Assembly (NCBI GenBank): GCA_032718475.1
Contig: JAUCBJ010001005.1
Coordinates: 1 to 64,000, forward strand
Reading direction: 5' to 3'
DNA: 64,000 bases
DNA from: Nemertoderma westbladi
Lineage: Eukaryota > Animalia > Xenacoelomorpha
A model generated the notes under the pieces. That model was not told the DNA's origin. It saw only the letters and a program-made list of their open reading frames with translations, and searched no databases. Position numbers and translations under genes: made by a program. Shown here in pieces: positions 2,986 through 64,000 of this stretch (position 1 is its first letter; each line of letters starts with the position of its first letter).

Positions 2986-3502
2986 TACGTTTGGAGTGGG
3001 TGTATGACTATATTATTTTATCTATTTTATTATATTTTTATATGCGAACTTTATTATGTACTTTATTATAATCGTTTTTATTCAATTTTATTTAGTAGAA
3101 TGTTATTTTAGTGATTATTTAGTAGATTAGTGCAATATATTAGTGTTTATTACGTAATTACATATATATAATATATATTTAGTGTGACGGCGAGAAATAA
3201 ATTTTTCTCTTTCCTTACTGTCCGTATCATATTATAAATACGTGACTACAGTAAGATGAAATGTCCGTACTTATTAAAGTACAATAAAGCCACTACTATA
3301 TTTAAGTATTATTGGTAGGCAGAGTATTAGGAATGCAAAGTTCAGATCCTCGTGTCTCGGCTAAACCAAGCTCTGGGTAGACCTTGGAAACGACTTGCCT
3401 CTTCACACTGACATTGCTTCGTGCGATATTGCTCTTCTACCTTATATTAAATAATACATATAGTAGCGTGAAGTCCCTCTAACAGTAGCGTAAAACGCAA
3501 AT

Positions 3503-3825
3503 AAATCTGTTAAACCTTTTGACCATCTGTAATTCTAGTCGATTAAGATATCGCGGCACCCACCGATATACTTGAAAGACAAATTCTAGAATCAGTGGTT
3601 AACGTCCCCAGACAAGTTCTGGAATAAATCGGTGCCCATCTTAAATATTAATTTAATATTTAGTAAAAAAAAAATCTGTAAAATTCAGGTCCTTTGAAAT
3701 TTCTAGTCAATTAAGATATCGCAGCACTTACCGATACTCTTAAAAGACAATTTTATAGAATTAAGGATCCTATGTCCCTAGACCTGGTCTGGAATCAAAT
3801 TGTGTCAATTTTAACATCAAATAAT
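3503..3825 (+). repeat. Imperfect tandem duplication (~168-bp period) in the pol-ORF3 spacer
   Basis: ttctagtc.attaagatatcgc.gcac..accgata at 3533 and 3701; present in copies B and C as well. Confidence 0.85.
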
Positions 3826-4615
3826 AAAATTCACGGGAATAAATTCAAATTCATATTTTAAATGAATTTCATAAATTGTCATTTTGTACAATTTATAACA
3901 TTCCCAAAATTCCATTAATTATTAGATCATGGGAGCGGAGATTCATCCTATTGAGTGTATTAGAGTGCGAGAATCTCCAACATATAGTCAATAGCCGATA
4001 AAATTAATAAAATCATGCATAAAGAGGATATTGACAATTAAAGAATTATTATTAAATAGCATCCCAGATCTGTATGCATGAGAATTACCCTAATTCTACC
4101 GCTAGCATTCCATAATGTCACCATAGCAACGCCCACGCTAGAATTAGAAGCAAGTTAAGAGAACAATAGAAAGCTTGCCACATTGCATAGCATAGAGAAT
4201 ACATAGCACACTGTTAGTATCCAAGGATACACAGTAATAACGTGGCATTCTGGAAGGCACTGACTAACGGACAAATGGCCTGTATGTGTATAATTGGTGA
4301 CAGTTGTGTGGAATTTGTGCGTTTATAGGTGGATGTTACTGCTAAAGTATGTTTACATTAGCTAGTCGCAATTGTAAAAGTAGCCCAACTCTCCTATAGA
4401 AAGAACCTAAGTGGATCCAAGCCTTTGGGACGGACAGTGGAGTGACTTGTGCCGGTTATCGTTGTCGTGCTGTTGCTACATGTTGGCGTAAACACCGCGA
4501 CGACGGTACATCGGCGCTGAGAATCCCACTGTCCGGGGGCAAAGAGAAGTAGGCAGCGACGCCCGCTCGCCTAAAATATAAACTCATTTGATATTAATAA
4601 ACTCAGATAGCAGAT

Positions 4616-7600
4616 ATGACGGAGTTGATAGAAGATGATCTTGGTATTAGGGAGCGATATACTCTACCTTTACAAGCATTTGTGGATAGCTTAATACGCG
4701 GTGAAGCCGATCCAACCATTACGGAGGACGATGGTCGTTATATCGAACCGCCGATGTCCCAAGAGCAACTTGCGCGTGAATTGGACTATCGAAAATTCAC
4801 CACTCGCTATACGAATCGTAATGGTACGTATATGGACTTCTTAACGACCGGCCATCCTATCGATTTACATGATACGGACGATGTAGATACAGAGAGGGAA
4901 ATGGTTCTATTTAAATATCATACCCAGCGGAGTCGTAACGATAAACCGAGAATAGATCACGAAAATTCTATTCGTAATAGACTGGAAAGAGAAAACGTTG
5001 AAGAACCGGATAAACACATCGACTTCAACGAATACCTAGAATTTTTGAGAGAAACCTATCTCAACATCGCTAGTCAGCAGAACTTATAGACTCGATATCC
5101 TCAAGGTATACATCACGACCCTGTGGTAGAACTCAAACGGCTCTATTTCACTATGATGTATCTTACCGCTGATCGTCCACTACCTGTTATCCCGGATAGT
5201 TTTGAACAAATGGAAGAATATTGCAAAACTGGAGAACGTTCACCCACGTTTCCTCTACAGGACGTACGTCTTTGGTATTATTGTGACGAATGCCCTAGAC
5301 CCAACCAACAAACTGAAAGACACAAACATCCGCGGAGACGTTGCGCTAAACATAGTTTTACGCGTTACACTTACGGGAGTTTCGAGCGAAACCTGTTCGA
5401 CGTACCACCCACGATCGCTCGTCTTAAACGATCACTGAATAAACCCATGATCAGAGTTCCGGAATACTCGGTCAGGCCTCCTCATTCCCTAGTGAGACCT
5501 CAAACTCTTGAGCCTAACAGTATCACTGATCCTCCCGAACTATATTCCCTGTTCAAAGACTTAGTGTTACCCGAACAATTAATCGGTGGTGCTCCGGTAG
5601 TGGGTTCATTAGACATTCGCCCATCCTACTTAGCCGGATTGGGGCGCGGGCAGCTAATATCGCCCTTTGATCCTTACAATCGTCCAGGATTAAACCCGAT
5701 GCAACCCGCCACGGAAGTCGAGGAGAGCGTTATAAGAAACGCTTTAGACGCCATTCGACAGAAAATCGGAAAGGGAACACAAGATTGTTTAGAGAAACGT
5801 AAATTACAACAACAAGTCCAATCGGTGAAGGAGTTAGCCTTGCCACAGTTCGATAGAGAAATCCAAAACCTCGAGGAAGACATCGAGCTTGGACGCACGT
5901 ATTCTCTACAAGAATTTTTAGATGAACGCTTACAGAGACAAGCGGAAGAAAATTTACTCGAGGAGAAACACACGAAACTGGAAGAGAGAGAAGAAGCCGC
6001 TTTAGCCCAACCTGAAGCTCAAATCCTCATGACGGACCTCTACTCTAAAACCGTTCGTCATCCCTCGATGATTCCACATTTCGGAGACAAGCTCTTTGCG
6101 ACGATACAGCCTCAACCGGTTGATATCAGTACAGGATCGCAAAATCTTATCGCTGACGCCCCTATGTTACAGCGTCCGCCGATCGAGGCCGCTCGTGTTG
6201 ACGGTATACTCGTTGAACCTCCGGACAATCGAGCGGATCTTGTCCGTCGTATGGTACACGATGTCAACATACGCGCTAGACCTTTACAGAACTCGTTTTA
6301 TGGGATTAAAGACCACCCTTATTACGTTAATCTGACTCAATATTATATGGTAAAACCAGAAGACCCGACGCATAATTTAAAGTTTCTACCACTAATAAAT
6401 CCTCTAGACATTGTCGAACTCGAACAATTGCAGAAACATCTGGATCAGTTAGTAAAGGTAAACTCATTTAGAAAACCATATAACATTTCTCGAATCGAGA
6501 AAGATATAGAACCTCCTTATAATCTCGATGGATTTATCAAAACTCGATTAGTCCATTGGAATCTAGATGTATTATTTGAAGAAGAGAAAATACAAAGATA
6601 TGGAAATGTGGAGACGTATACCACTCGGCACATGAAGTATAGTGATCTCCCTGACGCTAACCAATGCGCCACCTTGTGGCATCCAGTAGGGATGACCCTA
6701 GAGAACGCCACCAAGGAGTGGAATGAAACTCTTAATGTTATTGAGATGTATGGAGTTGTCACCTACGATAATGAAGGTAGCGTTCCGGTCGGAGAACTAG
6801 GAACTACGCGCATGATCCACATACGCGGATTAGCTGGTTCTACCCACGTGTTTACTCGAGCGTGTTCCGACGTGATTGATTATTCTTTTGAAACTCTCAC
6901 CGAAACACAAAAGAATCTCCGACATGGACAATTCGAACTCGCGCAGCGTTACGTCATTGACACCGAACGCAAACCGGCCATGGGCATCGATGGATCGATG
7001 TTACCCCAGCCCGTACTCGAGATGTTATTCAATAAAAGAATCCTTAAAATCGGCTCAGCTGTTTATGGAGATCTCCAAAACGACTTTCGGAATATGGAGA
7101 ACATTCCATACCCTTTCGTTGATACTCAGCTGATTGCTCCCTGGGCAGAAGGTCGAGGTTTCTTCCGCACCATGTATGCTAATACGTCTAGCAATATTAC
7201 AAAGGTGCAACGAACTTCCATCGGACATCTTGCCTTTCAGGAATACGGATGGAATTTCAAAGTCGGAAATCCCATTAACTATCAACAAGTATACGGAGAC
7301 CATTATTCTCGATTATACTTTGATGGACCATTGACCGCACCTGGCGCCGTGTATAGCTTCATGAGTGTTCCACTCCTTCCCTCCTTAGCTATATACACGA
7401 TCTTTGAAAACACCGCACTTGCCGGTTGGCTAGCCGATGTGTGCAGTCGTACCATACGCGCCCATCCATTAATACTTGGGACCAAACTCGCTAAGCTAGA
7501 TGAACATAATAAATTCATCCGTTTCGAATGTTTCCGGCGATTTTTAACCCCGTTCCGCAACGTGGATAGCCAATTTAAAGACCGCGCTTTGACCAAGCTC

Positions 7601-8869
7601 AGCCTAAGAAACTCAGCTGCAGAGAAGTTGGATAGCGCTGGATTCGCCGTTTTCCAAGAGATTTGTATATCGAACTTGCACTCCTCTGTTATACAAAGAC
7701 CTCGAATCCCCACAGGTTATTCTGTCGTGGAAATTCAGACAATAGGTCCACCTGAAGAGACAGACGCGCCCACTTCAGCTATGCACTTGGAAGACGAACC
7801 AATATGTCTAGAATCTGAAGAGATTCAGCCTATCGCGCCCCGGAACAGCGACAACGATTACATCATAGAATGGTATCAAGGTCCACAGTGTCTCACTGCG
7901 TACGATTATCGACATGCCAACTATGTTTCTAGGCAACGTTGTCGGTTATGCGCATCGAGAGACCACGATACGCCCATGGACACCAACGTCCGCTGTTCCT
8001 ATTTCCAAGAACAACCGACTATGGAAATTTATTGCGCATATTGCAGACTCAATAACTTGCATATCTTTGCGGTTTGCCCTCAATTTATGACTCAATGTCA
8101 CCATTGTCAACTAAAGGGACATGCCAGTTTCGATTGCCCTTTTAATCACGATTTGGAAAGCGTAGATGAAATGATCACACTACGTTACATCAGAGCTTGG
8201 GAAGCGAACGCTGATTTACATTGTGATTCGCGCCATCGCTATTATCCCGGACGCGCTTACGAAGGAGTTTATGCGTTCCATCCTTATCTATTCGCTTCGG
8301 TCGAACAGAAATCACGCATATCGAGTTATGAGCTACTGAAGCGCGTCGGAGAATGTATTTCAACCAAATTCGTACGCAAATTTCTCAGGAGTGTTAATCC
8401 TAGCGACCTTCATTCCTATAACTTAATCAATTATATCCGTCAGGATCCGGACTATGGAGACTTGTTTGTTAACTCACACCCCGAGTTACAGGAAGTATAT
8501 CGACGACCTTACGAATACCGAGCCCGCGAACGCGAGTTGGAAAGAACCATTAAACCCCGGAGGTTTCTAACTGCCTATGGTCCGCCCACGGCCCTCGTTC
8601 AGACCACTCGTAAAGGACCCGTAAGAGCGGCTGTCTTGAAACGAGCTCTCAAAGCCGTTAGACCCCTCTCCCCTGACGTTGATGTCAATCAACCCGGTAC
8701 TTCGACTGGTGGATACACCGACCATAATCCTACACCCTCTGATGCAATCATATTGCACCCTTCACCCAGGAGTTATAGCCCTCCTTGTAAAGTGGCTCGC
8801 CCCAAAGAGAAAAGGACTCTGGCTAGCTTTAAAAAACTGTGTAAACGCCGTCCGCGCAAGAAAGACTAA
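4616..8869 (+). CDS. ORF3 of copy A: ~1417-aa protein with a DEDDy-like 3'-5' exonuclease domain and CCHC zinc knuckles (one premature TAG at 5087-5089)
   Basis: ORFs 4616-5089 and 5123-8869 are in frame, and copy B has GAA at the TAG position. Motifs VVTYDNEG, LPQPVLEMLFNKRILKIGSAVYGDL, PFVDTQLIA, TSIGHLA and PLLPSLAIYTIFE follow the WRN/RNase D exonuclease pattern. Three Cys/His clusters lie at 7940-8137. Domain call made by eye. Confidence 0.8.
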
Positions 8870-8938
8870 CTGTTTAGAGTATTTACGTATATTAGAAACT
8901 GTGATTTTGTATATTTTATAGACTCAAATCCCATTTTC

Positions 8939-8947
8939 TGGGAGCGG
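8939..8947 (+). other. Polypurine tract of copy A (tgggagcgg)
   Basis: Directly abuts the TGT start of the LTR; identical in copy B (34017-34025, minus). Confidence 0.75.
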
Positions 8948-10213
8948 TGTAAAAGCTTCTGTGGGATATAACTGGCCCTTTTGCTTCGCAATCCAGTTTC
9001 CCCCCAGGCGCTGGAATACTCTAAAAGGCTCTCTAACTATATATATATTCCCCTCGCCCGCAAGGTACCGTTATAGGTGTTTTAACAGACATAAAAGTCA
9101 TTCTTCTATATACGTGCTTTAGCGGACATGGTAAGGCAAAAAACCCGCAATGCACCAAATACCTTTACACAGCTTAGCCTTGATGATTCAGATTACGACA
9201 TCTAACAGCTGGTTGCTGACATGGAAACGGCCATTGGACACATGGTTCTTTGTTTAGCTTAAGCCAATCAGAGCGATTTTTTCTGTCGATGTGGAGATAT
9301 TCGGCCGATCATACTAGGAGTGTTGAGTCTTACTGTTTTTTCTTGTTACTGTTGTGTTGTTTCTATCTAGGCCAGGAACACCGGCTCTAGAGTCAATTCG
9401 TTTCATACTTTAGAAGAAACATTAGTAGGCTTAAATTATAGAGCGTATAACTGTTATCATAACATAACAATCAGTGCATAACATATCAACTTATCTCAAT
9501 TCAGTCTTACATTATCGGTTCAACATACATTATTATACTGCTATTTACTGTTGTTTGGTTGAATATTATTTGGAGAATATTTATAAAGAACCCAAATTTC
9601 CCAATTTTCTTGATACACTACAGGTTAGAGAGACGGGTTATATATAGCGATTGCGACTTATATTATTGTGGTTTGTAGTGAATTTAATGCTATTTGATAA
9701 GCACTACATGAGTCCGTTGCTGTTCTCTTTATATATAATAAAATTCATTGACGGTCGGCAAATTAGTGAGCAGTATTGTGTGTTACCGGTAGTGTGCCTG
9801 ATTGTGATTGATAACTAAGCATTTCCTAAAGAATGCGCCTCATACGTGAATCATAAGCCTTACCGACTTACCGTTGTGATTAGTATAAGTCATATCTCTG
9901 TTTACCTAGATAGAGCGCCACGTCCAAAAGGAACTGTTAATATTTCCCGAAAGTGAATAATATTAGTCAGAAATTATTTATTAACGATCAATCGAATAAT
10001 ACAGTAATCTTACACTGCAATAATAATCTAAGCCCTCAGAATCCAGTCTCCCGGGTATATCCAGCGGGTGAATGGACGCGCACTTGGCTGGCTTCTGCTA
10101 ATGTTGTGTTTATTGGTATTAAATATTTGTCAACTTCTAAAGTCTATTTGTAAACCAAAAGACATATAAATTTTGGCAGGTTAAACTGCTAAAGGTCTTC
10201 AAAAGCGCGTACA
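8948..10213 (+). repeat. 3' LTR of copy A (1266 bp)
   Basis: tgtaaaagc...gcgcgtaca; closely matches 49171-50364. Confidence 0.95.
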
Positions 10214-10654: not shown

Positions 10655-11350
10655 TGTTAAAGCTTTTGCGGCAAAAATGTGTCGTTTTTGTGCAATACGC
10701 GAACTACTCTAAAACTGACAGTATCTCAAGGTATTTGAGAACTTATAAAAATTACGCCCCTTAGTGTTTATTTTGGTATAGAGCTATAGTGACGAAATCA
10801 CCAGCCATTGGCCAGTATTTTTCTTTGTCCCGTAGCCTCTATGTTATTTTCCCGGCCAATCAGCACAATTTTCACTTTACGGTTTCTTGAGGCCTTGTTT
10901 ACATATGAATATTGAATATGCCGCAATGCGAAAAAATCATTCATTCTGACTTCTGCCCGAATACCATCAGCATCGGCAAATCGGCAAATTTAGCGTATTT
11001 CAGTACTATTGTCAGTTGCGTGAGTGTGAGCGAATAATTATACATTCCTAAAGAATGTAAACACTGTGCAGTCTCATGACCATCCGTTGTAATTAGTATA
11101 AGTCATAACTCTGTGGGGTATTTAAAGCGAAGCATCTAAAGGAACTGTTGTTATTGCCCTGAAAGTAAAGCATAGTTTTGTAGATTAGTAGAAATCATTC
11201 GAATAATACAGAGTAACCTACCCCATTCTCTGCTATAGAATTCAGTCTCCCATACACAGTGGGTCATACGCCGTGCTAGGCTGGCTTCTACTGTACTGTG
11301 GTCATATTTTGTGGGGGCTGTCAGACATCATAGGACACATAAATTAACAG

Positions 11351-11689
11351 CGCCAGAGGGTAAAAAGAACAAGTGTCGCGGACACGTAGGTAACTGGTGT
11401 ATTAACGTATAACTGATACCGGGTAATAATGTTACATATAACATAGGTAAATGGCTACAGTAGCAATACGGTCATACACATAAGCAGTATCACGGTAAAG
11501 GAGCAGGTCTGCTATCCAGCAGTCAGGGTAAAGGTGATACAGCTCCGCAAGTGTGCGGAGTCAGGTAATCAGATAGTCTGACCCTGCTCACCGGGGGACC
11601 GGTCTTACACATAGCAGTATGACGTCACCCGGTGTGTTCTAACTAGTCACCACACAAGGTCTGTCAACCGGCTTGACGGTTGGCTGGCG
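11351..11689 (-). repeat. 3' LTR of Troyka-type element
   Basis: About 7 substitutions versus 17192-17530. Confidence 0.95.
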
Positions 11690-11692
11690 TGA

Positions 11693-11713
11693 TCCCTTTT
11701 TTTCTTTCTTTCT
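11693..11713 (-). other. Polypurine tract of Troyka-type element
   Basis: agaaagaaagaaaaaaaggga on the minus strand, 3 nt before the 3' LTR. Confidence 0.85.
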
Positions 11714-12389
11714 ACTTATACCTTTCAATAGTTAGTTCTGCCCTTTTCGGAATTGAAAATACAAAGAGGGTGCCGGCATTGACTAATGATAAGGCTTACC
11801 TAAATTACTTTCAGTTTCTCGCGAATAGGTACGGTACGTGTTATACTACAACTGTATGCACAATTAAATAAGGACATTTAACCAATGATCGGCTTTCCTA
11901 CTAATAATACTACATATAGAATGAACAACGCATGAAGACGCCTAACTAAATTACTTTCAGTTTCGTACGGACAAGGTCAGTCAGTTTATAGCGGATTGTA
12001 ACAGATTGGCAAAAAAACAGAACTATACTAAAGGGATACAAAGTTAAGCAAACAAACTATGAGCCAATAGTAATGGCCGCTGTAATGCACGGGATACCAT
12101 AAACACGTAGGAAAACTTGAGTATTGTAGTGTAATCATGGTGGAGGAAACCCATAGTAGTCTGGTGGGTGCGTATGATGCTGAGGACGCCGGGTGTGTGG
12201 AGGCACGTTGTCCACATCGTCGAACCCGAGGAACACCTCGTCTAGGGACGAAGAGGGTAATGGGGGGCGCGCTGGTGCCGGAGGGGGTGTAGTTGGACGC
12301 ACAGAAGGTACCGGAGGAGAGACCTGGTAATTTCGCTCACCCGGCGGTTCGGTGTCGGCTGGTTGTGGGGAAGGTAGACCCGCTGACCC

Positions 12390-15300
12390 CTAGTCATCGT
12401 CGTTGGACGAGGGTTCGTCGACCGCAGGTACCGAGGTATCGCGGTAGGGTAGCGATAACATTCGGGCCTGCGAACGCAGTTGGCGACCGACGAACTTCTG
12501 GACACTTACCCAGGATTGGTCCGTTGTCGCTACAATGTACCGGGGTCGGCCCTGTAGTTGCGGCGAATCGACGTGGAGGTAGACAATATCACCTACTTCT
12601 AACGGAGTATCTCTAGCGGAGCTACTGGGATGCGGATTTTTGGACTGTGCACTATGGGGATGATTGGCCAAACGACGGCGATGTTGCTGTTCGATAAGCT
12701 CAGAATCCATGAGGGGGAGTTGAGCGCCAGTAAACTGATCGCGTTGGAGCAGAATTTCTCGGGTGGATACGCCGCTCGACCAGATACGCGCATTTAACCG
12801 GGCGACGGCGAGGGCGATGGACACAACGGAGTAGGGTCCCCCTGAGGGATGGAGTTTAAGGAGCTCATCTTCTAATTCGCGAATGGCGTGTTCCGCGACC
12901 ACCGGATTTTTGTCTTTATTTTTGGTGCGACCCAACTCAATACGGATATGGTGGGCAGATAAAACCTTGTCGCCGACTAACGCACGGAATCCGGGTGCGG
13001 GATCGGTACAGATGACTGCGTGGGGGCCGCTAAGGGGGCACACACCGATGCACAACGTGAGGAGGCTATCCCGCAACGTTGTGTGTTGTTCATCTGAGAG
13101 GAACATGGCAGCGGAGTACGACGCGGCGGTTTCGCGGAGGATGAGGATGAACTGCCGATGGCAACGGATGACATCGGCAGCGAATGCGATTCCGATGGCG
13201 GCCGGAGGGTCACCGGATGATTGCTCGATGGATCGCCCTGGGGCGGAACGCAGCGCGGCGCATTGGGCACACTGCGAGTGGATGGATGTGATGGCTTCTT
13301 CCATGTCGAGGGCGTAGAAGTACCGCAGAAACGTAACGCGCAGCTGGGTACGCGACGGGTGTTGCAACTCGAGGTGCAGTGATGTAAGAAGACCAGAGAG
13401 CGCATGGCGAGAGACAATGATCATTTCCCGCGGAGCCGAGAATGCGGTGTGTCGAGGAACAATGAGGAGTCCGTCCATGGCGGCGGATGCGCAGCCGATG
13501 TACCGCTTAACGTCGCGGATGGTCGTCTCCTTCTTGGAGGGATGCGTGCCCTGTGCGAGGTGCGCCTTGGCTCGACGGATAGATGCGCATTCCTGCTGGG
13601 TGACGAGCCAGGTACTACGGGTGGCGTACAAGGGACGCGCTGGAGGGGGGGGGGGGTCTTCGGTGAGAACCTCCGCACGGATGATGGGTTCGTCGGCAAG
13701 CTGATTAACGAAGTCATAGACCTGGCACTGTGGATTAACACACTCGGGAATACTGCGACTTTGGAAGTCGGCTGGTAGGTTGCGCGAACCCTGGATATGG
13801 ACCACGAGGAGTGAGAACTGGCTCACCGTGGCAAGGAAGGTTGTGAGTCTCAGGCTGTTGGAGTAAGCCCCATGGGTAAGTTTAGCGAACGCCTGGACGC
13901 AGGGTTTACTATCGGTGACAACAGATGTGCGGGTAGTAGCGTGAGTGATATAGGGGGCGAAGTGATGAACAGCTGCCGCGATGCGAGTGCTTCCAATTCA
14001 CAAGGAAGCCATGTACGTTGATGGGTTTGCAACTTCGTGGAGTAGAACCCGGCGACGAGGAGTTTCGACTCGCGGCGGACATATAAGACAGCGCCGAGTC
14101 CATCGATGCTGGAGGCGGCGTCGGTGACGATGAACAGCTCGTCGGAGGGCCATGGAAGAACCACAGTATGGCATGTTTTCAGGGCGGCCTGAGCGCGCCG
14201 GAACGCACAAGTCGAAGACTCCGTCCACTGAATGATATTGGTGGAAGCGCCGAGTGCGAGTTCGTCGAGGTCAGAGAGAAGTGCTGCGCAATGGGGGAGA
14301 ACGCGCACGAGGACTTTATACGATCCCAGGAAGGAACGGAGGGACCGGAGAGTGTCAGGTTTATCGCAGGTTGCGTGGGCTGAAACGACATGAGACGACG
14401 CGGTCAGGGAGCCAGCAGTCCATTGCGAGCTAAGAATGGTAGTGGAAAGCGGGCAAATGACGGTCTTCTTGGGGGATAAACGTAAAGAAGAGCGTGCGAG
14501 GTCTGTGAGTAGCGCGTTAAAATTTGCGGCTAATTCGTCTATCGTGTTGCCACCACAATACAAATCGTCTGCGAGTTTACTGACGGCGCCATGCTTGATA
14601 AGTTCCCCGAGGACACGACAGATCAGTTCTTCCAAGGCGGTCTCGGATCCAGGCATACCCATGGTGCAGCGGGTATAGACTCGCACGCCGCGGAATGGTG
14701 TAACAACACCGCAGAACTTCATGGAGTTGCGACTAATGGGGATCTGGTAGAACGCACTCGCTAAATCGGTTTTAATGAGGAACTTATAGGAGCCGATTTC
14801 GCGCAGGGTAGACTCGACACTAGGGAGGAGTGATGGCTGGGGTTTAGCATACCGGGCGATCTCGTTAAAGGCTGTAACGAGACGAGTTCCTCCGTTGGGT
14901 TTGGCGACGAGGAAGGAGGGACTGAGATACTCCACATGTACCCCTGTGTGTTCGGGTGTAGCGAAGACACCGCGTTGTTCAAGTTCATCGAACCGGTCCT
15001 GCAACTCGACGAGGCGGTTGCGGCCGTATTGGGGTACGCGTCCTTTCTGTTGAGGGGGTAGAGTTGGTCCCATTTTGACAACGGCTTCGTAAGGGCCCGC
15101 GGCGCCGTTATATCCGGGGTACTCGGCTTCGAATACCGTGGAGTGCGCGGCGAGGACGTCGGAAAACTGGCAGCGTTCAGCGCTGGTGAGGATGTTGTCG
15201 GGGTCTAAGCGTACGCCGTCGACGGAACGGGGGTTGGGGCGATGGGTAGAGCGCGATGCAGGCGGTGGGACTGTATCAACGGCAGCGGTCGGTATTGCCG

Positions 15301-16950
15301 CCGGTTGGATGGGTGTTGCCAAGCAAACGTGAGAGTTCCGTTTGATCCTGACGGGGATCTGGGTGACGTTGCGGATGGCGATGGAACCGTCGCACACTTC
15401 GGCAAGGAACGGTTGGAACCAGTGGATGGTGGTGGGATGGATGGGGTGCCAGTAAGAGGGGCATGGTACTCGCTACCGGTAGAGTGAGATCCGCATCTGG
15501 CCAGACTACGATGGACTGGGTAGATGCACATACCAGTGTGGACTCGGGTCTTTGCGGGCGCGTGGAGGTTGAGTGCTGGACTCCGAAGGGTATTGTGGTG
15601 CCGTCCGGTAGGGTAATCGTCATATGGGCGGGACGTAGCGTTATATCATTGCGGTATAGGAACGGCATTCCACAAATGATGGGACATCCGAGCTCCGGGA
15701 CGACGAGACCGTTAAACTCGAAGGGAATCGAGCCACGGTGGACGACGAAACGCGTTTCGCCGGTAACCTTCATCTTAGACTGTCCATCGGCCTGTTCGGG
15801 AACCTGGCAACTACTCGGGGAGATATGGACGCCCAGCTGGCGGGCGAACGCCTCCCAGATGAGATTGGATTCTGCGCCACTGTCGAGTAGCAATCAAAGT
15901 GGACGGGACTGATAATCGGCTTCCAAGACGGGGGAACGCATCACAGCAACTCGGTGGGCCGCTGGTGGTTGGTTGTTACTCATTGGGGAATCATCGGGGG
16001 GCTCGAACTCGTCATTGGAACTAGCGGAATCGGCGATATTGATGGCGCGAGTCCGGATGAGGAACTGTTTATCCTGATCGGGGAGGAATGGGCAGGTACT
16101 GAGGAAGTGGTCGAAGTCCTTGCGTTGCGCCTGCTTGCACAGGGGGCAAACCCGGGCAGGTTGTGTGCGGTTCTGTAAACTGGCGCGGGTGGCGCGGGGC
16201 GACCTCCGTCATCTGGGAGCAGAACGTGCGCACGTCGGCTGACACGCGGAGCTCCTCCAAGAGGGACAGCATCGCCTAGCTGATCTCGGCCTTGACGGAA
16301 GCCAAGGTGCGGGAACGAAGTTCGCAGCCATATCGTTGCTTAACCAACGCCGGTAATTCCTTGTGGATGAGACATAACCAAGTCAACACAAGGAAGTTCT
16401 CCACTGTGGGGGAGATCTCCTCGGCGGCGGCGGGGAGCTCGCCATCATGGGTAATGCCCCCGAGGGGTGAGAGGAGGTTGTCATCAAAAAATGCTGTGAG
16501 ATGTTGGAAAAGGTCTTCATGGCGTTCCTCGTGTTCGAGGTGGATGGTGGAGAGATCTAGGAAGTGGGAGCCTGTCCATTGAAAACCGTAATGTAATCGG
16601 AGGGCCTGCCAGACGTATGAGAGAGATGTTGATTTTAGTACGATGGTGTTACGCGCGATAACCTGCGCGTAGTTGGCGATTTGGCCCAGCATGAACTCGA
16701 GGGAGATGAGTTGTTGCTGCGCGGTACGTCGTTGGGCGTCCGGAACACCGGCGGCGTCGTCGACGAGACCCCGGGTCGGACTCGCAGGAGAAGCCTTCTC
16801 CCATACTGCGCCAGCGGCAGTAAACCGCGCAAACTCTGGGTCGAGAGACAGACTATAAATCAATGTCTGGCGCCAGGACTCGAATGACGTGATGGATTCC
16901 TGAGTAGTGAGTTTAACTAAACGTGGAGCCTTTAGGTGTTGATTCGCCAT
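12390..16950 (-). pseudogene. gag-pol of Troyka-type element, broken by stops and frameshifts
   Basis: Gag 16276-16950; protease LLDSGAESN at ~15893; RT with DLASAFYQIP and LADD (13850-15397); RNase H VTDAAS; integrase H..LQHP..C..C, FAADV, TDPAPGF, NPVVAE..I.ELE (12390-13826). Confidence 0.9.
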
Positions 16951-17180
16951 GGTGAATGGTAGATCGGGTTGGGTACTGCGTGAGTCCGCAGTACCGGTTA
17001 GGTAGGTAGTAGCCTAACTGGTGGGTAGATCGCCAGTAGGTACCGGTAACGGCTGACTGGATAGCAGGAAGACGACAGAGGGAGCTCCAACCCCGGGTCG
17101 CCTGGTGAAGAGAACGTGTAGCGACTCTGACTTGCTGCTGACAGGCTGACTGGCTGAGGAGTGAGAATCGAACTCCGAAA

Positions 17181-17191
17181 CGTTGCCACCA
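17181..17191 (-). other. tRNA-type PBS (TGGTGGCAACG), tRNA-Leu-like
   Basis: Begins with TGG immediately after the 5' LTR; one mismatch to the common tRNA-Leu PBS TGGTGGCAGCG. Confidence 0.7.
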
Positions 17192-17530
17192 CGCCAGAGG
17201 GTAAAAAGAACCAATGTCGCGGACACGTAGGTAACTGGTGTATTAACGTATAACTGATACCGGGTAATAATGTTACATATAACATAGGTAAATGGCTACA
17301 GTAGCAATATGGTCATACACATAAGCAGTATCACGGTAAAGGAGCAGGTCTGCTATCCAGCAGTCAGGGTAAAGGTGATACAGCTCCGCAAGTGTGCGGA
17401 GCCAGGTAATCAGATAGTCGGACCCTGCTCACCGGGGGACCGGTCTTACACGTAGCAGTATGACGTCACCCGGTGTGTTCTAACTAGTCACCACTCAAGG
17501 TCTGTCAACCGGCTTGACGGTTGGCTGGCG
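17192..17530 (-). repeat. 5' LTR of Troyka-type element
   Basis: Direct repeat of 11351-11689. Confidence 0.95.
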
Positions 17531-18546
17531 CAGGTTAAACTGTTAAAGGTCTAAAAGCGCGAACAAAATGTTTGAAAGATTATGTCTGAAGTTTGGTCAA
17601 AAATCAGACAGTCTGTCTGACGGTACCTTGTAGTTTCAGTTTGAATAAAAACCGTAATAAATCGGCTAATCATTCCTGAAATTAAACCAAACTTGGTATG
17701 GTTGGTAAGTTATGTATGTAGTCCGTCGAAAGTTTACAAAGAATCTGAAGTTTGGTCAAAAATCAGACTGTCTGTCAGTCCGTATCGTTAGTTTCAGACT
17801 TTTGATAAACCCAAATAAGTTGGCCAATCTTTGATGAAATTAAACCAAACTTGGTACTATATGCAGTCTCGTGTTGCTCGAAGACAACACGGACGTGTAT
17901 TGACTGTCAGCTGGAATTATATCAAGGGACCTTGAATTATTCTCAGGTAATATTTGTTGGGCGAGCCACGAAGTTGACAGAGTCTTATCGAACTGATTAT
18001 GTTAGGGGGGGTAAGGACAAATAGTTGTTGTCGTTGTCATGCTAACAAGACTTTTGAAGACCATCAGATAAACAGTCTTTCGCTAAAGGACTACAAACCT
18101 AAATATTAAGTGTCCTCCTATTTCTTTGCTTTTAATCCGTTCTAGCTGAAACTTGGAATTTGTACAAAACCACTAGCTGTGTCATTTGAAGGTGGCTAAT
18201 CCGGCTGCAGTTCTCTGGTCAGCTGCTGGAGGGCGAAATGTCTCAAAGTGAAATCCTTGACCCATCTCGTTATTTATGATCCGTTCAAGCTGAAACTTGT
18301 TACATACTGTGTGTGCTAGAAGAGAACATATGTCTTTGTGGGGTCGGTATGAAAGTGAACCTTCTTCCATTTCCTTGATCCTAATTGACTTCTCCAATCA
18401 TCCCGAATAATAATCGGTACACAAACTGGTGACACTTTAAGGCGCACGGTACGGTAGGCCCTACTGTGCCACACTACTGTAGCTCCTAGGCCTACACTAC
18501 TATCAATTATTATTTTCTCTTTGTTAACAATTATATTACTTTTTAG

Positions 18547-26365: not shown

Positions 26366-26863
26366 ATGAACAATGGAAAACGTTTATTAGTGACAGTTGG
26401 CACGACTAAGTTCGCCGATTTGATAACAACTATCTGTTCGCCGCGTGTTTGTAAAGAACTTGAGATCCTGAAATTTACCAGAGTAGTTTTACAATATGGA
26501 AATGGCCCGAAACCGCTCCTTCCTGAAACCTCTAGACTAGATATAAGATGTTATAACTTTAAACCGTCACTTAGGGAAGATATGCAGAATGCAGATCTGA
26601 TAATCAGTCATGCTGGAGCTGGGAGTTGTTTAGAGTCGCTTTCACTTGGCAAGCAACTTATTGTAGTTGTAAATGATAAACTTATGGATAACCACCAGCT
26701 GGAACTTGCTAAACAATTTGCTTCGGAGGGATATCTAACATATTGTAATTGTGATAACCTTGGCGATACTCTAAAGCAATTTAACATTTCCAAATTAACT
26801 CCTTTCGTTTCTGGTGACACAAGTCTATTTTCTAAGCATATGGATTCAGTTATTGGGTTTTAA
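26366..26863 (+). CDS. ALG13: UDP-N-acetylglucosamine transferase subunit ALG13 (165 aa, intronless CDS)
   Basis: LVTVGTTKF, VLQYG.G, FKPSL.EDM..ADLIISHAGAGSCLE.L..GK.LIVVVN..LMDNHQLELA. Confidence 0.95.
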   Translation: MNNGKRLLVTVGTTKFADLITTICSPRVCKELEILKFTRVVLQYGNGPKPLLPETSRLDIRCYNFKPSLREDMQNADLIISHAGAGSCLESLSLGKQLIVVVNDKLMDNHQLELAKQFASEGYLTYCNCDNLGDTLKQFNISKLTPFVSGDTSLFSKHMDSVIGF

Positions 26864-32894: not shown

Positions 32895-34016
32895 TGTTCG
32901 CGCTTTTAGACCTTTAGCAGTTTAACCTGCCAATTTTAGTTGTCCTCTTGTTTATAAATCGACTTTAGCCTTTTACCAATTACCTAGAATCCAGCCGAAG
33001 CCAGTCCGTGCGCGGCGTATGACCCACGGTGTGGGAGACTGGATTCGGATTCCTTGGGAGTTATTGCAGTGTAGACCTACTGTATTATTCGATTGATCGC
33101 TACTATATAATCTCTGACAACTATATTCACTTTCGGGGAAATATTAACAGTTCCTTTAGGACGTGGCGCTTTAAGTATAAAAACAGAGTTATGACTTATA
33201 CTAATCACAACTAGATGGCCACAGAGTTTCGTAAATAGCGCATTCTTTAGGAGATGCTTTATTAACCTTCACACTACTTCACACGACTTCACACTACTTC
33301 ACACTACTTTACACTAGTTCGCACTAATCTGCCGACCGTCACTGAATTTGATCATATATAAGGAGGATCTCAACTGACACACGTAGGGATTATGAAATAG
33401 CATTTAATTCACACAAAACCACTATAATTTAAGTCGCAGTTGCTACCGGTTAACTCTATTCCTCTTACCTCAGTAATCAATAAGATTGATGGGTTTATGA
33501 TTATTTATCTGTATTCTCCAAATATAACATCAATATCCATTAATATAACAATTAATACTATAAACAGAAGTAAATAATGCGGTGAACAGTCAGTATGTGT
33601 TACTTATGCAGTTATGAAATGTTCAGTGGTGCGTCAAATAAGTTGAAATGTGATCAAATGTTAATAGATTTACGTTCTTATAACCAAGGCCATCTGATGT
33701 TCCTAGGCCAAAGTCTGAAACTTCCGCACAGAAGCACAGAAAATTCGGAGTTGGTTCTGATGCTCAGAAAATAGTAAACAAAGACCGTAATGCATTGCGT
33801 GAGTTTCCATAGGTTTCTGTTAGCTGTAAAGTGAAAATTGCTCTGATTGGCTGAATAAGACAACAAAGAACTTCCACGTCCACAAAGAATCAGCTGACAG
33901 ATTTCGTCATCTTGGTTCTAATTCCTTCCCGTCGCCGTTGGATAAATTTAGGGCTATTTTAGAGTACTCGGCGCATTGCGTAAAAATGACTTGTTATGTC
34001 CGCAAAAGCTTTTACA
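32895..34016 (-). repeat. 3' LTR of copy B (1122 bp)
   Basis: tgtaaaagc...gcgcgaaca on the minus strand; about 99% match to 48214-49170 apart from small indels. Confidence 0.95.
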
Positions 34017-34094
34017 CCGCTCCCAGAAAATGGGATTTAAGTCTATAAAATATAAAAAATCACAGTTTCTAAAATACAAAAATACTCTAAACTA

Positions 34095-37000
34095 TTAGTC
34101 TTTCTTTCGTGAATGGCGTTTACGAAGTTTTTTGAGGCTAGTAAGAGTCCTTTTCTCTTTGGGGCGAACCACTTTACTAGGAGGGCTATAACTCCTGGGT
34201 GAGGGGTGCAATACAATTGCATCGGAAGGTTTCGGATTACGGTCGGTGTATCCGCCGGTCGAGGTACCCGGTTGATTGATATCAACCTCAGTGGAACGAG
34301 GTCAAACAACCTTTAGAGCGCGTTTCAGGACAGCAGCTCTTACTGGTCCCTGACGGGTCGTTTGCACGAGAGCGGTAGGTTGACCGTGAGTAGTGAGAAA
34401 TTTCCTCGGTTTGATGGTTCTTTCCAACTCGCGTTCTCGGGCTCTATATTCATATGGTCGTCTATGAACTTCTTGTAGCTCTGGATGCGAGTTTATAAAC
34501 AAGTCACCATATTCCGGATCTTGGCGGATGAAGTTGATCAAGTTATGGGAATTAAGGTTGTTAGGATTAATATTCCTAAGGTACTTGCGAACAAATTTAG
34601 TCAAAATATTCTCGCCAACACGCTTCATTAGCTCGTAGCTAGGGGTGCGAGATTTTTGCTCAACGGAAGCAAAGAGATATGGGTGAAACGCGTAGACTCC
34701 TTCATAGGCACGTCCAGGATAGTATCGATGACGTGATTCACAATGGAGATCTGCGTTAGCTTCCCAGGCTCTGATAAAACGCAGGGCAACCATTTCGTCT
34801 ACGCTTTCTAGATCTCGGTTGAAAGGGCAATTGAAACTTGCGTGTCCCTTAAACTGGCAATGATGACATTGAGTCATAAATTGAGGACTGACTGCGAAGA
34901 TGTGTAGATTATTGAGTCTACAATACGCACAATAAATCTCCATAGAAGGTTGATCCTTAAAGTAGGAGCAGGGTACCCTGGAGTCCACCGGGGTAAAGTG
35001 ATCTCGTGATGCGCATAATCGGCAACGTTTCCTAGAAACATAATTGGCATGCCAATAGTCGTATGCGGTGAGACATTGTGGACCTTGATACCATTCCAGA
35101 ACATAATCATTGTCACTGCTCCTGGGCGCTGTGGGTTGAATCTCCTCGGACTCCAAGCAAAATGGTTTGTCTTCCAATTGCATAGCTGAGGTAGGTGTAG
35201 CTGTCTCCTCAAGCGAACCCACTGTTTGAACTTCCACGATAGAATAACCTGTGGGGATTCGGGGTCTTTGTATGACAGATGAATGTAAGTTCTGTATACA
35301 AACGTTCTTAAAAATGGCGAATCCAGCGCTGTCCAACTTCTCAGCAGCTGAGTCTCTTAAGCTGCGCTTGGTCAGAGCGCGGTCCTTGAACTGACTATCA
35401 ACGTTACGGAACGGAGTCAGAAAGCGCCTAAAGCGTTCGAATCGGATGAATTTATTGTGTTCATCTAGCTTGGCGAGTTTGGTTCCAAGTAACAAGGGGT
35501 GGGCACATATAGTGCGACTGCACACATCGGCTAGCCAACCGGCAAGTGCAGCATTCTCGAAGATAGTGTATATAGCTAATGAGGGACGGAGTGGAACACT
35601 CATAAAGCTATAAACGACGCCAGGTGCGGTTAATGGTCTGTCGAAGTATAATCGAGAATAATGATCTCCATATACTTGTTGGTAGCTGACAGGGTTTCCG
35701 ACTTTGAAATTCCATCCGTATTCATGGAAGGCAAGATGTCCAATAGAGGTTTGTTGTACTTTATTGATTCCGCTGGATGTATTAGCATACATAGTTCGGA
35801 AGAAACCTCGCCCTTCTGCCCAGGGAGCAATCAGCTGGGTGTCTACGAAAGGATATGGGATATTCTCCATGTTTCTGAAGTCATTTTGGAGATCTCCATA
35901 AACAGCTGAGCCGATTTTAAGGATTCTCTCGTCAAACAGCATCTCGAGCACTGGCTGGGGTAGCATCGATCCATCTATACCCATGGCCGGTTTGCGCTCG
36001 GTATCGGTAACATAACGCTGCGCGAGTTCGAATTGTCCATGTCGGAGTTTCTTTTGTATCTCAGTGAGAGTCTCAAAAGAATAATCGATCACGTCGGAAC
36101 ACGCTCGAGTAAACACATGGGTAGAACCAGCTAGTCCACGTATGTGTATCATTCGCGTAGTTCCCAGTTCTCCAACCGGAACGCTACCTTTGTTATCGTA
36201 AGTGACAACTCCATACATTTCGATAACGTTAAGAGTTTTTGTTCCACTCTTTGGTGGCATTTTCTATGGTCATACCCACCGGATGCCATAAGGTGGCGCG
36301 TTTGCTTGCATTAGGTAGATCGCTATACTTCAGATAATGTGTAGTATAAGTCTCTGCATCTCCATATCGCTGTATTCTCTCTTCCTCGAATAATACGTCG
36401 AGATTCCAATGGACTAATCGAGTTTTAATAAATCCATCAAGATTATACGGAGGCATTATTACGGAAGCTGCTTCTTCTCTCTCGTCCATTTCAATGTGCT
36501 TCTCCTCGAGCTGATTTTCCTCCGCTTGTCATTGGAAGTGTTCATCCAAAAACTCTTGTAGAGAGTAGGTTCGTCCAAGTTCGATATCTTCTTCGAGATT
36601 CTGGATTTCTCGATCGAACTGGGGTAAAGCTAATTCTTTTACCGCTTGGACTTGTTGTTGCAATTTACGTTTGTCTAAACAATCGTAGGTTCCTTTTCTG
36701 ATCTTTTGCCGAATAGCGTCTAACGCGTTTCGTACAACGCTCTCCTCCACTTCGGTGACAGGTTGTATCGGGGTTAAACCGGGACGATTATACGGTTTAA
36801 ACGGCGATATTAGATGTCCACGTCCCAATCCGGCTAGGTAGGATGGGCGAATATCTAGAGAGCCCACAACCGGAGTGCCACCGACTAATTGTTCGGGTAA
36901 CACTAGATCTTTGAACAATGAGTACAGTTCAGGAGGATCTGTCATACTATTAGGATCAAGAGTCTGAGGTCTCACCAGGGAATAAGGAGGTCTGACCGAG

Positions 37001-37851
37001 TATTCCGGAACTCTGATCATAGGCTTGTTTAAGGATCGTTTGAGTCGAGCGAGCGTGGGTGATACGTCGAACAAGTTTCCATCGAAACTCCCGTAAGTAT
37101 AGCGAGTAAAACTGTGCTTAGCGCAATGTCTCCGTGGATGTTTATGTCTTTCCGTTTGTTGGTTGGGTCTAGGGCATTCATCGCAATAATACCAAAGACG
37201 CACATCTTGTAGGGGAAACACAGGTGATCTTTCTCCAGTTTTACAATATTCCTCCATCTGTTCGAAGCTATCCGGTACAACAGGTAGTGGTCGATCGGCG
37301 GTAAGATACATCATAGTGAAATAGAGTCGTTTGAGTTCTATCATAGGGTTATGATGTATACCTTGAGGATATCGAGTTTCTAGATTTTGTTGACTGGCTA
37401 CATTGAGATATGTTTTTCTCAGGAATTCCAAATATTTGTTGAAGTCACTGCGTTTATCCGACTCTTCAACATCTTCTCTTTCGAGTCGATTTCGAATAGA
37501 ATTTTCATGTTCGATTCTCAGTTTATCATTCCGACTCCGCTGGGTATGATATTTAAATAGAATCATTTCCCTTTCGGTGTCTACATTGTCCGTATCGTGT
37601 AAATCGATAGGATGACCAGTAGTTAAGAAGTCCATATACGTACCATTACGATGCGTATAGTGAGCGGTGAATTTTCTATAGTCCAATTCATGCGTGAGCT
37701 GCTCCTTTGACATTGGCAGTTCGATATAGCGGCCATCGTCCTCCGTAGTATGTTGACTAGCGTCGCTGCATATTAAACTATCAACAAACACTTGCAATGG
37801 TAGGGTATATCGCTCCCTGATACCAAGATCATCTTCTATCAACTCAGTCAT
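34095..37851 (-). pseudogene. ORF3 (exonuclease plus zinc knuckles) of copy B, with stop, frameshifts and a ~0.5-kb deletion
   Basis: Fragments 36529-37851, 36229-36489 and 34302-36260 align to ORF3 of copy A; the segment matching A ~6000-6512 is missing. Confidence 0.9.
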
Positions 37852-39615
37852 GGCTGCTATATGAGTTTATAGATATTATAATTAATAATAATTAGGCTAG
37901 CGGTTGTCGCTGCCTCCCCCTCAGTGCCCCCGGACAGCGCAAGATCCTCAGCGCTATGTACTGTCGTCGCTGTGCCTCTCGCCAATGTAGTAGCTACACA
38001 ACGACAACAATAACCAGCGCGAGTCACTCCACTGTCCATCCCAAGGGCTTAGATTTACTGGAGGTTCTTGCTACAGACAACTGCGACTCGCTACTGTAAA
38101 CACACTTTAGTAGTAACATTCACCTATAAATACACAAATTCCACACTCCTGTCACAATTTGTACAAATTCGGGCCATTTGTCCGTTAGTCAAATGCCTTC
38201 CAGAATGCCACGTTATTATTATGTATCCCTGGATACTAGCAAGGTGCTATTTATTCCGCATGCTATTCAATGGGGCAAGCTTTCTATTGTTCTTTTAACT
38301 CGCTTCTAATTCTAGCGTGGTTGTTGCTATGGTGACATTATGGAAAGCTAGCGGTAGAATTAGGGTAATTCTCATGCATACAGATCTGGGATGCTATTTA
38401 ATAGTGATTCTTTAATTGTCAATATTCCCCTTATACATGATTTTATGAATTTTATCGGCTATTGTCTGTACACTGGAGATTCTCGCACACTAATATACTT
38501 AATAGGGTGAATCTCCGCTCCCATGATCTATTAATTAATGGAATTTTGGGAATGTTATAAATTGTATAAAATGACAATTTATCAAATTCATGAGAGGATA
38601 TGAATTTAAAATTTATTCCCGTGAATTTTATTATTTGATATTAAATAGACACAATTTTATTCCAGAACATGTCTGGGAACTAGGATCCTTAATTCTAGAA
38701 ATTTTGTCTTTTAAGAGTATCGGTAAGTGCTACGATATCCTAATCGACTAGAATTTTAGAGGATCTAAATTTTAACAGATTTTGATTTATAGATTTTCTA
38801 GAGTCAATTTGTTAGTATTTACTCTATTGTAACATTTGTTTTAACAGATTTTATAAATATTTATTAAATATTTAATATTTAAGATGGGCACCGATTTCTT
38901 CCAGAACATGTCTGGGGACGTTAACCACTGATTCTAGAATTTTGTCTTTCAAGTATATCGGTGGGTGCCGCGATATCTTAATCGACTAGAATTTCAGATG
39001 GTCAAAGGGTTTAACAGATTTATTTGAAGATTCATTAACAGATTTGTTTGATAACATTATTAATATTAATAATGTTTGTTAATATTTTTGAACTTCAATG
39101 CTACTGTTAAATGGACATCATTCTACTATATGTATTATTTAATATACGGTATGAGAGCAATATTGCAAGAAGCAATGTCAGTGAGAAGAGGCAAGTCGTT
39201 TCCAAGGTCTACCCAGAGCTTGGTTTAGCCGAGACACAAGGATCCGAACTTTGCATTCCTAATACTCTACATACCAATAATACTTGAGTATAGTAGGGGC
39301 GGTATTGTACTTTTAATATGTACGGACATTTCATCTTACTGTAGTCACATATTTATAGTATGATACGGACAGTAAGGAAAGAGAAAATGAATTATTTCTC
39401 GCCGTTAAACGAAATATATTATGCTAAGTAATTAAGTAATAAGACACTGATATATTGCACTAATCTACTGAATAATTGTTAAAATATTATTCTACAAAAT
39501 AAAATTAAAGAAAACGATTTTAATAATAAAATTACATATATAATAATGCATACATAAATATAAAATAATAAAAAAAATATAAAATAATGAAGTCACACAC
39601 CCACTCCAAACGCTA

Positions 39616-45600: not shown

Positions 45601-46361
45601 CTCCTCAAAGGCTGAAAGGATTAATCTGATCCGTAAGATACGTTCTCGCACTTGATAAAGCAGCTCTCCCTGCTCTTGAGGTCCTTGACGTTGTTGAAAT
45701 AAATGTTCTTCTAATCGCTCCAAGGAGCTGAAGAATCCCTGGACATATCCTGCTGCTGACCTCTTCCATATAGCTGGATCTCGAGTGTCCCTTACTATCC
45801 CCATTCGGTATATGTCCTCCCAGGCAGCTTCCGATAAATTAAACGGGAGTCCGGGTCCGGGGAAGTTCTATTGTGTCTCTACAATATACCTTAGTTCCTC
45901 CATCGTATGTCCCGCTTAACTGTCCCTGGTCGATCTCTTATTTCTCATCCAATCAGCTTGATGTTCCTCCACAACGATCAATACTCTAGTGAGTACGGCC
46001 CCAGGAAGAATTAGAAGTGGATCTGGATAAACTGCTTCTGCCATCCTTGCTCCGATCTCGGGCGTTAACTCTTCAGTGTCGGAACTACTAGAGTTATTCT
46101 GCCATTGAGAAATAAGTTCCTGGCTCGGGTGCTGCTGCTGCTAACAGCCGTCTCTTGGTCTCGCTTAACTTGAGCCCTAGTGCCTATAATAGACCTATGA
46201 TGCTTTACTAGCCTAGAGTCTGATACCACTACTGTAGGGATGACCTTTCTTACAGTAGGAGGGGACTTGGACTTTGGTCTGAGATGTTCAATACTTTGAT
46301 CTGGGTCACAGATCGTTCTTTCTAGGAGACTATCTGACAGTGTTTGCTTTGTGTCAGACAT
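39616..46361 (-). pseudogene. gag-pol of copy B, fragmented; zinc knuckles and protease deleted
   Basis: Collinear ORF fragments homologous to 52600-60709; junction near 43570-43600. Confidence 0.9.
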
Positions 46362-47990: not shown

Positions 47991-48083
47991 GAGTAGCGCC
48001 CACCCCTACCCTCGGGTAGCAGCTATCGAAAGAGGAGCCTTCGGGTCGCCTCCGGCTTCGGCCGACTGTTTGCTTGCTTGCTT
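47991..48083 (+). mobile_element. 5'-truncated SINE tail inserted in the leader of copy B
   Basis: Matches 21642-21737; absent from the homologous position of copy C (~50590). Confidence 0.85.
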
Positions 48084-48201
48084 ATCACAATCGAAATAAT
48101 ACTGCTGTACCTGTAAGTACTGGTTTGGGTGATTAGGCCTACAGTTTTACTGTCTGACTGGTACATTCGACTTTATTGTCTACGGCACAATAAAGAAACC
48201 C

Positions 48202-48213
48202 TAAATCTATTAA
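48202..48213 (-). other. Non-tRNA PBS of copy B (TTAATAGATTTA), complementary to its own LTR
   Basis: Abuts the LTR end; exact inverted match to 48982-48993. Confidence 0.8.
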
Positions 48214-50364: not shown

Positions 50365-50375
50365 ATAACAGTTAT
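50365..50375 (+). other. Non-tRNA PBS of copy C (ATAACAGTTAT), complementary to its own LTR
   Basis: Abuts the LTR end; exact reverse complement of 49599-49609. Confidence 0.8.
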
Positions 50376-50429
50376 TGACTTTATTGCAGTAAGCAATAAA
50401 GTTGAAAGTACCGGTCGACCGGTAAACCT

Positions 50430-50560
50430 GAACCGGTACTTCTGTAGGTCAGTAGGCCCAACTGCCAGAACCGGTACTGCTGTAGTTCCGTAGGTCCAAC
50501 TGCCAGAACCGGTACTTCTGTAGGTCCATAGGCCCAACTGTCCTAACCGGTACTTCCAGT
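50430..50560 (+). repeat. ~38-bp tandem repeat in the leader of copy C
   Basis: aaccggtact occurs four times, with ...tagg(c/t)ccaactg between occurrences. Confidence 0.8.
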
Positions 50561-63881: not shown

Positions 63882-64000
63882 ATGACGGAGTTGATAGAAG
63901 ATGATCTTGGTATTAGGGAGCGATATACTCTACCTTTGCAAGCATTTGTGGATAGCTTAATACGCGGTGAAGCCGATCCAACCATTACTGAGGACGATGG
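63882..64000 (+). CDS. Start of ORF3 of copy C (truncated by the window)
   Basis: MTELIEDDLGIRERYTLPLQAFVDSL..., matching 4616 onward. Confidence 0.9.
   Translation, partial: MTELIEDDLGIRERYTLPLQAFVDSLIRGEADPTITEDD

Follow-up and report, generated by a model that had tools for sequence, protein, structure and literature searches.

A third open reading frame for a predicted DEDDy-like exonuclease is held as tightly as pol in a BEL/Pao retrotransposon family of Nemertoderma westbladi

A BEL/Pao retrotransposon family of Nemertoderma westbladi carries a third open reading frame (ORF3) for a predicted 3′–5′ exonuclease with zinc knuckles, and judged by codon comparison ORF3 is constrained as strongly as pol and more tightly than N-terminal gag. 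The stretch of DNA analysed, referred to as the window, comprises 64,000 nucleotides (assembly GCA_032718475.1, contig JAUCBJ010001005.1, positions 1–64,000), and the comparison covers the three copies of the element in the window (A, B and C) together with contigs from four sequencing runs. Between copies A and B, ORF3 shows a dN of 0.068, a dS of 0.85 and a dN/dS of 0.080 (bootstrap 0.063–0.097), while four further methods gave ratios of 0.070–0.102; across the methods dS lies between 0.67 and 0.95. The ratio is 0.106 (0.083–0.132) for pol, with 0.099–0.135 by four further methods, and 0.305 for N-terminal gag, with 0.29–0.33. These values rest on 1,247 of the 1,416 ORF3 codons; four were excluded because of stops and 44 because local identity was low, the alignment being weak across a deletion in copy B, and the remainder had no partner. 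The earlier note, made from the letters alone, had regarded ORF3 as a long-maintained functional part of the element and not a recent passenger, and had named a whole-ORF dN/dS near 1, to be compared with those of gag and pol, as the result that would speak against this. The ratio found is far below 1, and since ORF3 follows a common spacer at an equivalent position in both subfamilies and has relatives of only about 20–30% identity, it is no recent passenger.

The element is, by its coding domains and termini, a BEL/Pao (Belpaoviridae) LTR retrotransposon. Pfam matches were obtained to DUF1759 (Gag, E 2.5e-13), Peptidase_A17 (E 6.5e-34) and DUF5641 (E 4e-20), Gag has a triple Cys/His knuckle, the order in Pol is PR-RT-RH-IN, and the LTR features of BEL/Pao are present: the LTRs end in TG...CA, and a tract of purines precedes the 3′ LTR. 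A tRNA primer-binding site is usual in BEL/Pao but does not define the group. Copies A and C belong to one subfamily (96.6% identical), and copy B is 82–85% identical to them. Copy A, on the plus strand, begins with the 3′ part of pol (1–2985; end of RT, RNase H, integrase and DUF5641, with a stop at 769), followed by a non-coding spacer (2986–4615), ORF3 (4616–8869, about 1,417 codons), a putative polypurine tract (8935–8947), which is purine-ended, abuts the LTR and is identical in A and B, and the 3′ LTR (8948–10213, TG...CA). ORF3 thus lies 1.63 kb behind pol and directly ahead of the purine tract and the 3′ LTR, and because of this position between pol and the LTR it belongs to the RNA of the element. 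The one in-frame stop of copy A ORF3 (5087–5089) is not read in the contigs of other copies, which carry another letter at 141,207 of 141,277 depth in run X1, and the exonuclease-knuckle region of copy A is open and unbroken.

Copy B (32895–49170, minus strand) contains a frameshifted gag-pol that has lost about 1.3 kb, the spacer and ORF3 (34095–37851), the latter with about 500 bp deleted (opposite A 6002–6504), a frameshift near 36241 and stops. Its 5′ LTR (49170–48214), cut by copy C, and its 3′ LTR (34016–32895) are identical at 934 of 944 positions. Copy B is thus heavily damaged, yet the divergence between its LTRs is only about 1%, and it may have moved when already defective. Copy C (49171–64000, plus strand), which is of the A-like subfamily, interrupts copy B within its 5′ LTR and points the other way (junction 49170/49171); it comprises a 5′ LTR (49171–50364), gag-pol with the BEL-type triple knuckle, the spacer with a 1.55-kb insertion that includes a 162-bp tandem repeat (61168–62720), and the start of ORF3 at 63882. 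The leaders are about 2 kb long, and that of copy C contains a 288-bp tandem unit (50769–51308) with a counterpart in copy B (47556–47918). Every copy in the window is damaged by stops, frameshifts or deletions, so selection must have acted in active lineages and not on these copies. Because of this decay, the measured dN/dS probably lies above the true ratio.

The constraint extends over the whole length of ORF3. Across all 11 segments pN/pS ranges from 0.065 to 0.198, with the lowest values in the exonuclease and in a motif behind the knuckles, and without the divergent tract described below and the part downstream of it dN/dS is 0.084. One maximum likelihood fit gave 0.60 for the N-terminal half, which is taken as a failed fit since the two halves of this part gave 0.11–0.12 separately. 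The contigs of the four runs reveal many further copies, with 29,141 contigs in run X1, and 24 of the 34 best-supported variant places in ORF3 are synonymous (from the best 40 of 1,145, the stop excluded). Contigs from which 2.8 kb of ORF3 (4984–7789) are missing occur in three of the four runs, with a depth of 2,918 in run X4, which means that copies were able to spread without ORF3 in cis. What the selection shows is that ORF3 is needed, rather than that it is catalytic or what its target is.

The observation from which the analysis started was a block of 27 codons in copy A ORF3 (8237–8317, plus strand) that overlaps the motif behind the knuckles. As had been claimed, the block translates into the same 27 residues as B 34647–34727 (minus strand) while 18 of the 27 codons differ synonymously, every one of them at the third position; the neutral probability that 18 out of 18 changes are synonymous is about 1e-10 to 1e-11. 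The full identical run around the block is 30 codons long (8228–8317). At an ORF3 identity of 87% between A and B, runs of at least 27 identical residues occurred in 4,918 of 5,000 shuffles, and two longer runs, of 52 and 43 residues, lie in the exonuclease. The combination of such a run with at least 18 synonymous differences was reached in only 39 of 5,000 shuffles. Over all of ORF3, 36% of the residue-identical codons differ synonymously, as opposed to 18 of 27 in the block, which lies within a tract of raised synonymous divergence (7937–8663; 1 of 5,000 permutations) and therefore overstates the typical ratio of ORF3. At fourfold sites the K80 distance is 1.29 in this tract, 0.48 in the rest of ORF3 and 0.31 in the integrase, the values outside the tract ranging from 0.31 to 0.83 (chi-square p 1e-7); the tract probably reflects a mosaic ancestry through recombination. 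Among the contigs of many copies, 16 of the 21 variants listed in the block are synonymous, and over 8180–8370 the count is 26 of 37, with no second-position variants and no indels. It had further been stated that the exonuclease motifs and the knuckle cysteines are essentially conserved in B apart from one Cys-to-Ser change. This change is indeed present (A 8075), but the motifs are not fully conserved, as the Glu of ExoI in copy A (6773) is Lys in copy B (36191), a difference absent from the earlier note.

The most conserved large part of ORF3 is the predicted exonuclease domain (6731–7470, dN/dS 0.05–0.06), with ExoI Asp 6767 and Glu 6773, ExoII Asp 7070, and ExoIII Tyr 7394 and Glu 7406, the last of which stands where Asp is canonical, so that the acidic set of copy A is D-E-D-E. 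It is followed by a Cys/His cluster with zinc knuckles (7940–8137), whose best solved relative in a profile search is the retroviral nucleocapsid (E 0.0007) and whose profile also resembles the Air/TUT knuckles, and by the post-knuckle motif [FW]E-x2-A-x7/8-[RK]-xn-G-[FV]-[FYH] (8198–8272). The C-terminal tail is basic. The N-terminal 700 residues (4616–6730) are conserved as well (dN/dS about 0.11–0.14), with a Cys/His cluster at 5282–5342 and a charged, proline-poor stretch at about 5700–6040. No relatives of this part were detected, a single-sequence search of solved chains giving chance matches, and heptad periodicity gave no support for a coiled coil. Hydropathy and Pfam do not support an envelope glycoprotein as the product of ORF3: no transmembrane segment stands out (the best 19-residue hydropathy, 1.54, lies within the exonuclease), there is no clear anchor, and Pfam gave no env match.

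Among 1.84 billion representatives two relatives of ORF3 were detected, and a third cluster was found by profile (7,993 scored), while two further searches found no homologs among 4,057 and 3,238 candidates. The three clusters, from ENA/Logan assemblies (P0002, P0003–7 and P0008–21), are about 20–30% identical to ORF3 and share its layout of exonuclease, long linker, knuckles and post-knuckle motif, the last being present in all three; in contrast to ORF3, their proteins have 575–650 residues and lack the 700-residue N-terminal part. The motif offers a way to trace a protein family below the reach of Pfam. Scans of viral and metagenome contigs and of phage records yielded no genomic locus for the relatives. 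ExoI D-x-E and the ExoII Asp occur in copy A and in all three clusters, and the spacing of ExoI, ExoII and ExoIII in ORF3 is that of the clusters. ExoIII reads Y-x3-E in A, B and P0002 and Y-x3-D in P0003 and P0008 at equal spacing, so that P0002 shares the D-E-D-E set of copy A, whereas P0003 and P0008 have D-E-D-D. All four catalytic positions are thus acidic in copy A and its relatives; an alternative ExoIII register without an acid turned up in one analysis. When six frames were searched with a profile made solely from the relatives, the two frames of ORF3 were the only ones to match (E 2e-17 and 5e-14).

The assignment of the domain draws on several kinds of comparison. Pfam gave neither an exonuclease nor an HRDC match for ORF3. 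With ESM features, 23 of 30 matches carry PF01612 (top score 0.92), at a shared-feature count of 158, where genuine members of a family typically reach 170. In a profile search against solved chains, EXD2 (E 0.0027), Egalitarian (E 0.13–0.16) and RNase D were the top three of four matches. Two predicted structures were poor (pLDDT 33 and 46); with these models none of 262 Foldseek matches reached E ≤ 0.001, EXD2 being first (E 0.7) and Nibbler sixth, and a wider fold search on a poor model had a top row (Z 6.0) that does not lend itself to interpretation. The domain very probably has a DEDDy fold, and a metal-dependent activity with Glu in ExoIII is predicted with slightly better than even odds. 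The PF01612 clan (EXD2, WRN-exo, RNase D, Egalitarian, Nibbler) shares ExoI D-x-E, K-[IV]-G before the ExoII Asp and the P-L-x6-Y-x3-acid spacing with ORF3, which in turn differs by lying below Pfam detection, by the ExoIII Glu, about 30 inserted residues within the domain, the fusion to knuckles and the lack of a detected HRDC domain.

The region ahead of ORF3 is conserved at the level of nucleotides. In the spacer, 1,421 of 1,603 aligned bases are identical between A and B (88.6%), while half of the synonymous sites of ORF3 differ; in part this may reflect recombination, as the adjoining integrase is also less diverged. No ORF is shared between the A and B spacers and no codon periodicity is seen (mismatches by frame 52/72/58). 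At 3498–3823 a 150-bp unit occurs twice, its two copies diverged (about 72%) yet well kept in A, B and C; it is possibly a promoter or enhancer. A long RNA hairpin (4431–4535, plus strand) is found 80 nt ahead of the ORF3 ATG, with folding z-scores of −5.0 in A and −4.7 in B, followed by a small second hairpin at about 4550–4577 that compensatory changes likewise preserve. Of the 44 pairs of the long hairpin, 33 are unchanged between A and B, six still pair after a change on one side and three after compensatory changes on both, one is broken and one gapped. When the same changes were placed at random, at most one broken pair resulted in 14 of 100,000 trials, in a test that takes the structure from A and compares two distinct sequences. 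Rfam gave no match for the spacer or the hairpins, and no full hammerhead core was found by eye. In both subfamilies TAGCAG stands two bases ahead of the ATG and could serve as a candidate splice acceptor; among the matches listed for run X5, whose RNA origin is a guess, none has a joint or loose end at this AG.

The second conserved RNA feature is a self-complementary primer position. In copy C the 11 nt directly behind the 5′ LTR (50365–50375, plus strand) are the perfect reverse complement of LTR positions 49599–49609, and the site 9447–9457 in the 3′ LTR of copy A is likewise complementary to this primer position. In copy B 12 nt (48202–48213, minus strand) are the perfect reverse complement of 48993–48982 and 33672–33661. 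No tRNA-type (TGG) primer site follows the 5′ LTR in B or C. The LTR site lies 766–780 nt from the LTR end at homologous places in both copies, and such a complement was reached in 11 and 2 of 3,000 shuffles. The letters of primer and site differ between the subfamilies yet complementarity is kept, that is, they covary: own pairing is 11 of 11 (C) and 12 of 12 (B), whereas pairing across subfamilies is only 8 and 6. The site of copy C is nearly palindromic. In global folding the pairing probability of site and primer is 0.3–0.76 in C and only 0.2–0.23 in B. A Gypsy element in the window, used as a control, has a TGG site and just 5 nt of self-complement. In B as in C, the primer position is followed by a short hairpin. 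This arrangement matches a putative self-priming of the Tf1/sushi type in place of a tRNA primer, as reported for Ty3/gypsy chromoviruses and some copia elements (PMC7175516, PMC6317226, available text). Common to both are the 11–12 nt that pair inside the LTR from right behind its 5′ copy and the lack of a tRNA-type site; the carrier is different, being BEL/Pao here. The available text of PMC3601003 and PMC6934838 mentions self-priming for other groups only, and a literature search with few subscription journals among its sources found no paper on self-priming in BEL/Pao.

Taken with a probability of about 45%, our preferred reading is that ORF3 is an RNA-holding and RNA-trimming 3′–5′ exonuclease of the element that acts in trans. 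As an accessory gene of the BEL/Pao family under purifying selection of pol strength, it would provide a predicted DEDDy-clan exonuclease whose nucleocapsid-like knuckles would grip the element's own RNA while its active site would trim unpaired 3′ ends of that RNA. The element's RNA as substrate, for instance in the form of the self-made primer or of transcript ends, is tentatively proposed at a little under even odds. Conserved RNA elements flank ORF3, and it is rather likely that ORF3 is expressed from a separate message or from an internal start, which the conserved spacer and its hairpin would determine. Action in trans would allow ORF3-deleted copies to spread. Points that speak against the reading are the missing Pfam exonuclease match, the low ESM feature count, the poor structure models, the Glu in ExoIII, the Lys in ExoI of copy B and the inserted residues in the domain. 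The Tf1 primer is produced by RNase H according to the available text of PMC7175516, so trimming of a primer by an exonuclease is no general need. It is a long shot that the family represents a tRNA-independent BEL/Pao lineage in which an active D-E-D-E exonuclease-knuckle protein would anneal and trim the self-made primer, and thereby the prototype of an exonuclease-knuckle family of animal retroelements.

Other functions were weighed against this reading. The protein might instead trim or destroy host piRNA or siRNA, or act as a decoy of host DEDDy factors such as Nibbler/MUT-7 and EXD1, through which the element would escape silencing. DEDD proteins do work in host piRNA pathways (PMC5408684, available text), the family is abundant with its many contigs in run X1, the C-terminal tail is basic, and Nibbler was sixth in the fold search, far from significance. 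An arms race, however, predicts fast-evolving parts, and all 11 segments of ORF3 are under purifying selection; we regard this counter-silencing as rather unlikely. Somewhat less probable still is a non-catalytic adaptor that would attach to the long hairpin through its exonuclease fold and knuckles and so connect the RNA of the element with export or transport. Egalitarian is a non-catalytic RNA adaptor. The same is described for EXD1 (PMC5408684, available text), and CERV, the accessory RNA-export protein of Cer1, is a precedent in a retroelement (PMC10309623, available text). The non-canonical Glu of ExoIII, the presence of Egalitarian among the profile matches and the 44-pair hairpin next to ORF3 would fit such an adaptor, but four acidic catalytic positions across proteins of about 20–30% identity are unexpected for a dead enzyme.

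A DNA-directed exonuclease that proofreads or trims cDNA ends, like WRN-type or polymerase exonucleases, is very improbable. The ESM matches are clusters of PF01612 (DNA_pol_A_exo1), and DEDDy enzymes can act on single-stranded DNA (PMC5408684, available text); against it, the knuckles resemble the RNA-binding knuckles of nucleocapsid and Air/TUT. That ORF3 is a captured gene that hitch-hikes, its conservation inherited or an artefact, is hardly credible: the broken state of all window copies and the ORF3-skipping contigs would be in line with it, but it is refuted by the whole-ORF dN/dS (dN 0.07 versus dS 0.67–0.95 over 1,247 codons) and by the synonymous excess among copies.

Exonuclease ORFs of this kind have a precedent in the bdelloid rotifers, in which the LTR elements Juno1/2 and Vesta2/5 as well as Athena/Terminon carry a DEDDy-exonuclease ORF3 (PMC5408684), as restated in PMC5718144 and PMC6431247 (available text of all three). 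New here would be a DEDDy-like ORF3 in BEL/Pao. Both have a DEDDy-type exonuclease in the env slot with an acidic, non-canonical motif, and in both the function is predicted. They differ in the carrier, BEL/Pao as opposed to Juno, Vesta and Athena, and in the acidic set, D-E-D-E as opposed to the DEED given for the rotifers. With about 1,417 residues, a long N-terminal part, knuckles and the post-knuckle motif, the protein also differs from the rotifer ORF3s as far as these can be compared by description. In the available text of PMC5408684, no significant within-genome departure from neutrality is reported and the benefit to the element is left open, whereas purifying selection is clear here; that a DEDDy-type ORF3 is, from end to end, under constraint equal to that of pol in another superfamily shows that it is needed. 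Env-type BEL/Pao elements such as roo and those with chuvirus-like glycoproteins in mosquitoes (PMC13524379, available text) likewise carry an additional ORF downstream of pol and ahead of the 3′ LTR, but ORF3 has nuclease and knuckle motifs and not those of a fusion glycoprotein. The word “exonuclease” is absent from the available text of PMC2774666, PMC13524379 and PMC7998251, and a literature search covering few subscription journals and not Repbase found no report of a BEL/Pao element with an exonuclease ORF. As the exonuclease-knuckle region is unbroken and the hairpin and the self-primer duplex are available as defined RNA elements, the question of the substrate can be addressed in vitro.

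Two further features of the window lie outside these copies. A Gypsy-type element (11351–17530) with LTRs of 97.9% identity, CG...CG instead of TG...CA ends and a TGG primer site sits in a third, diverged BEL LTR (10655–11350 and 17531–17565). At 26366–26863 there is an intronless ORF for ALG13, a UDP-GlcNAc transferase subunit, which is either a host gene or a retrocopy.
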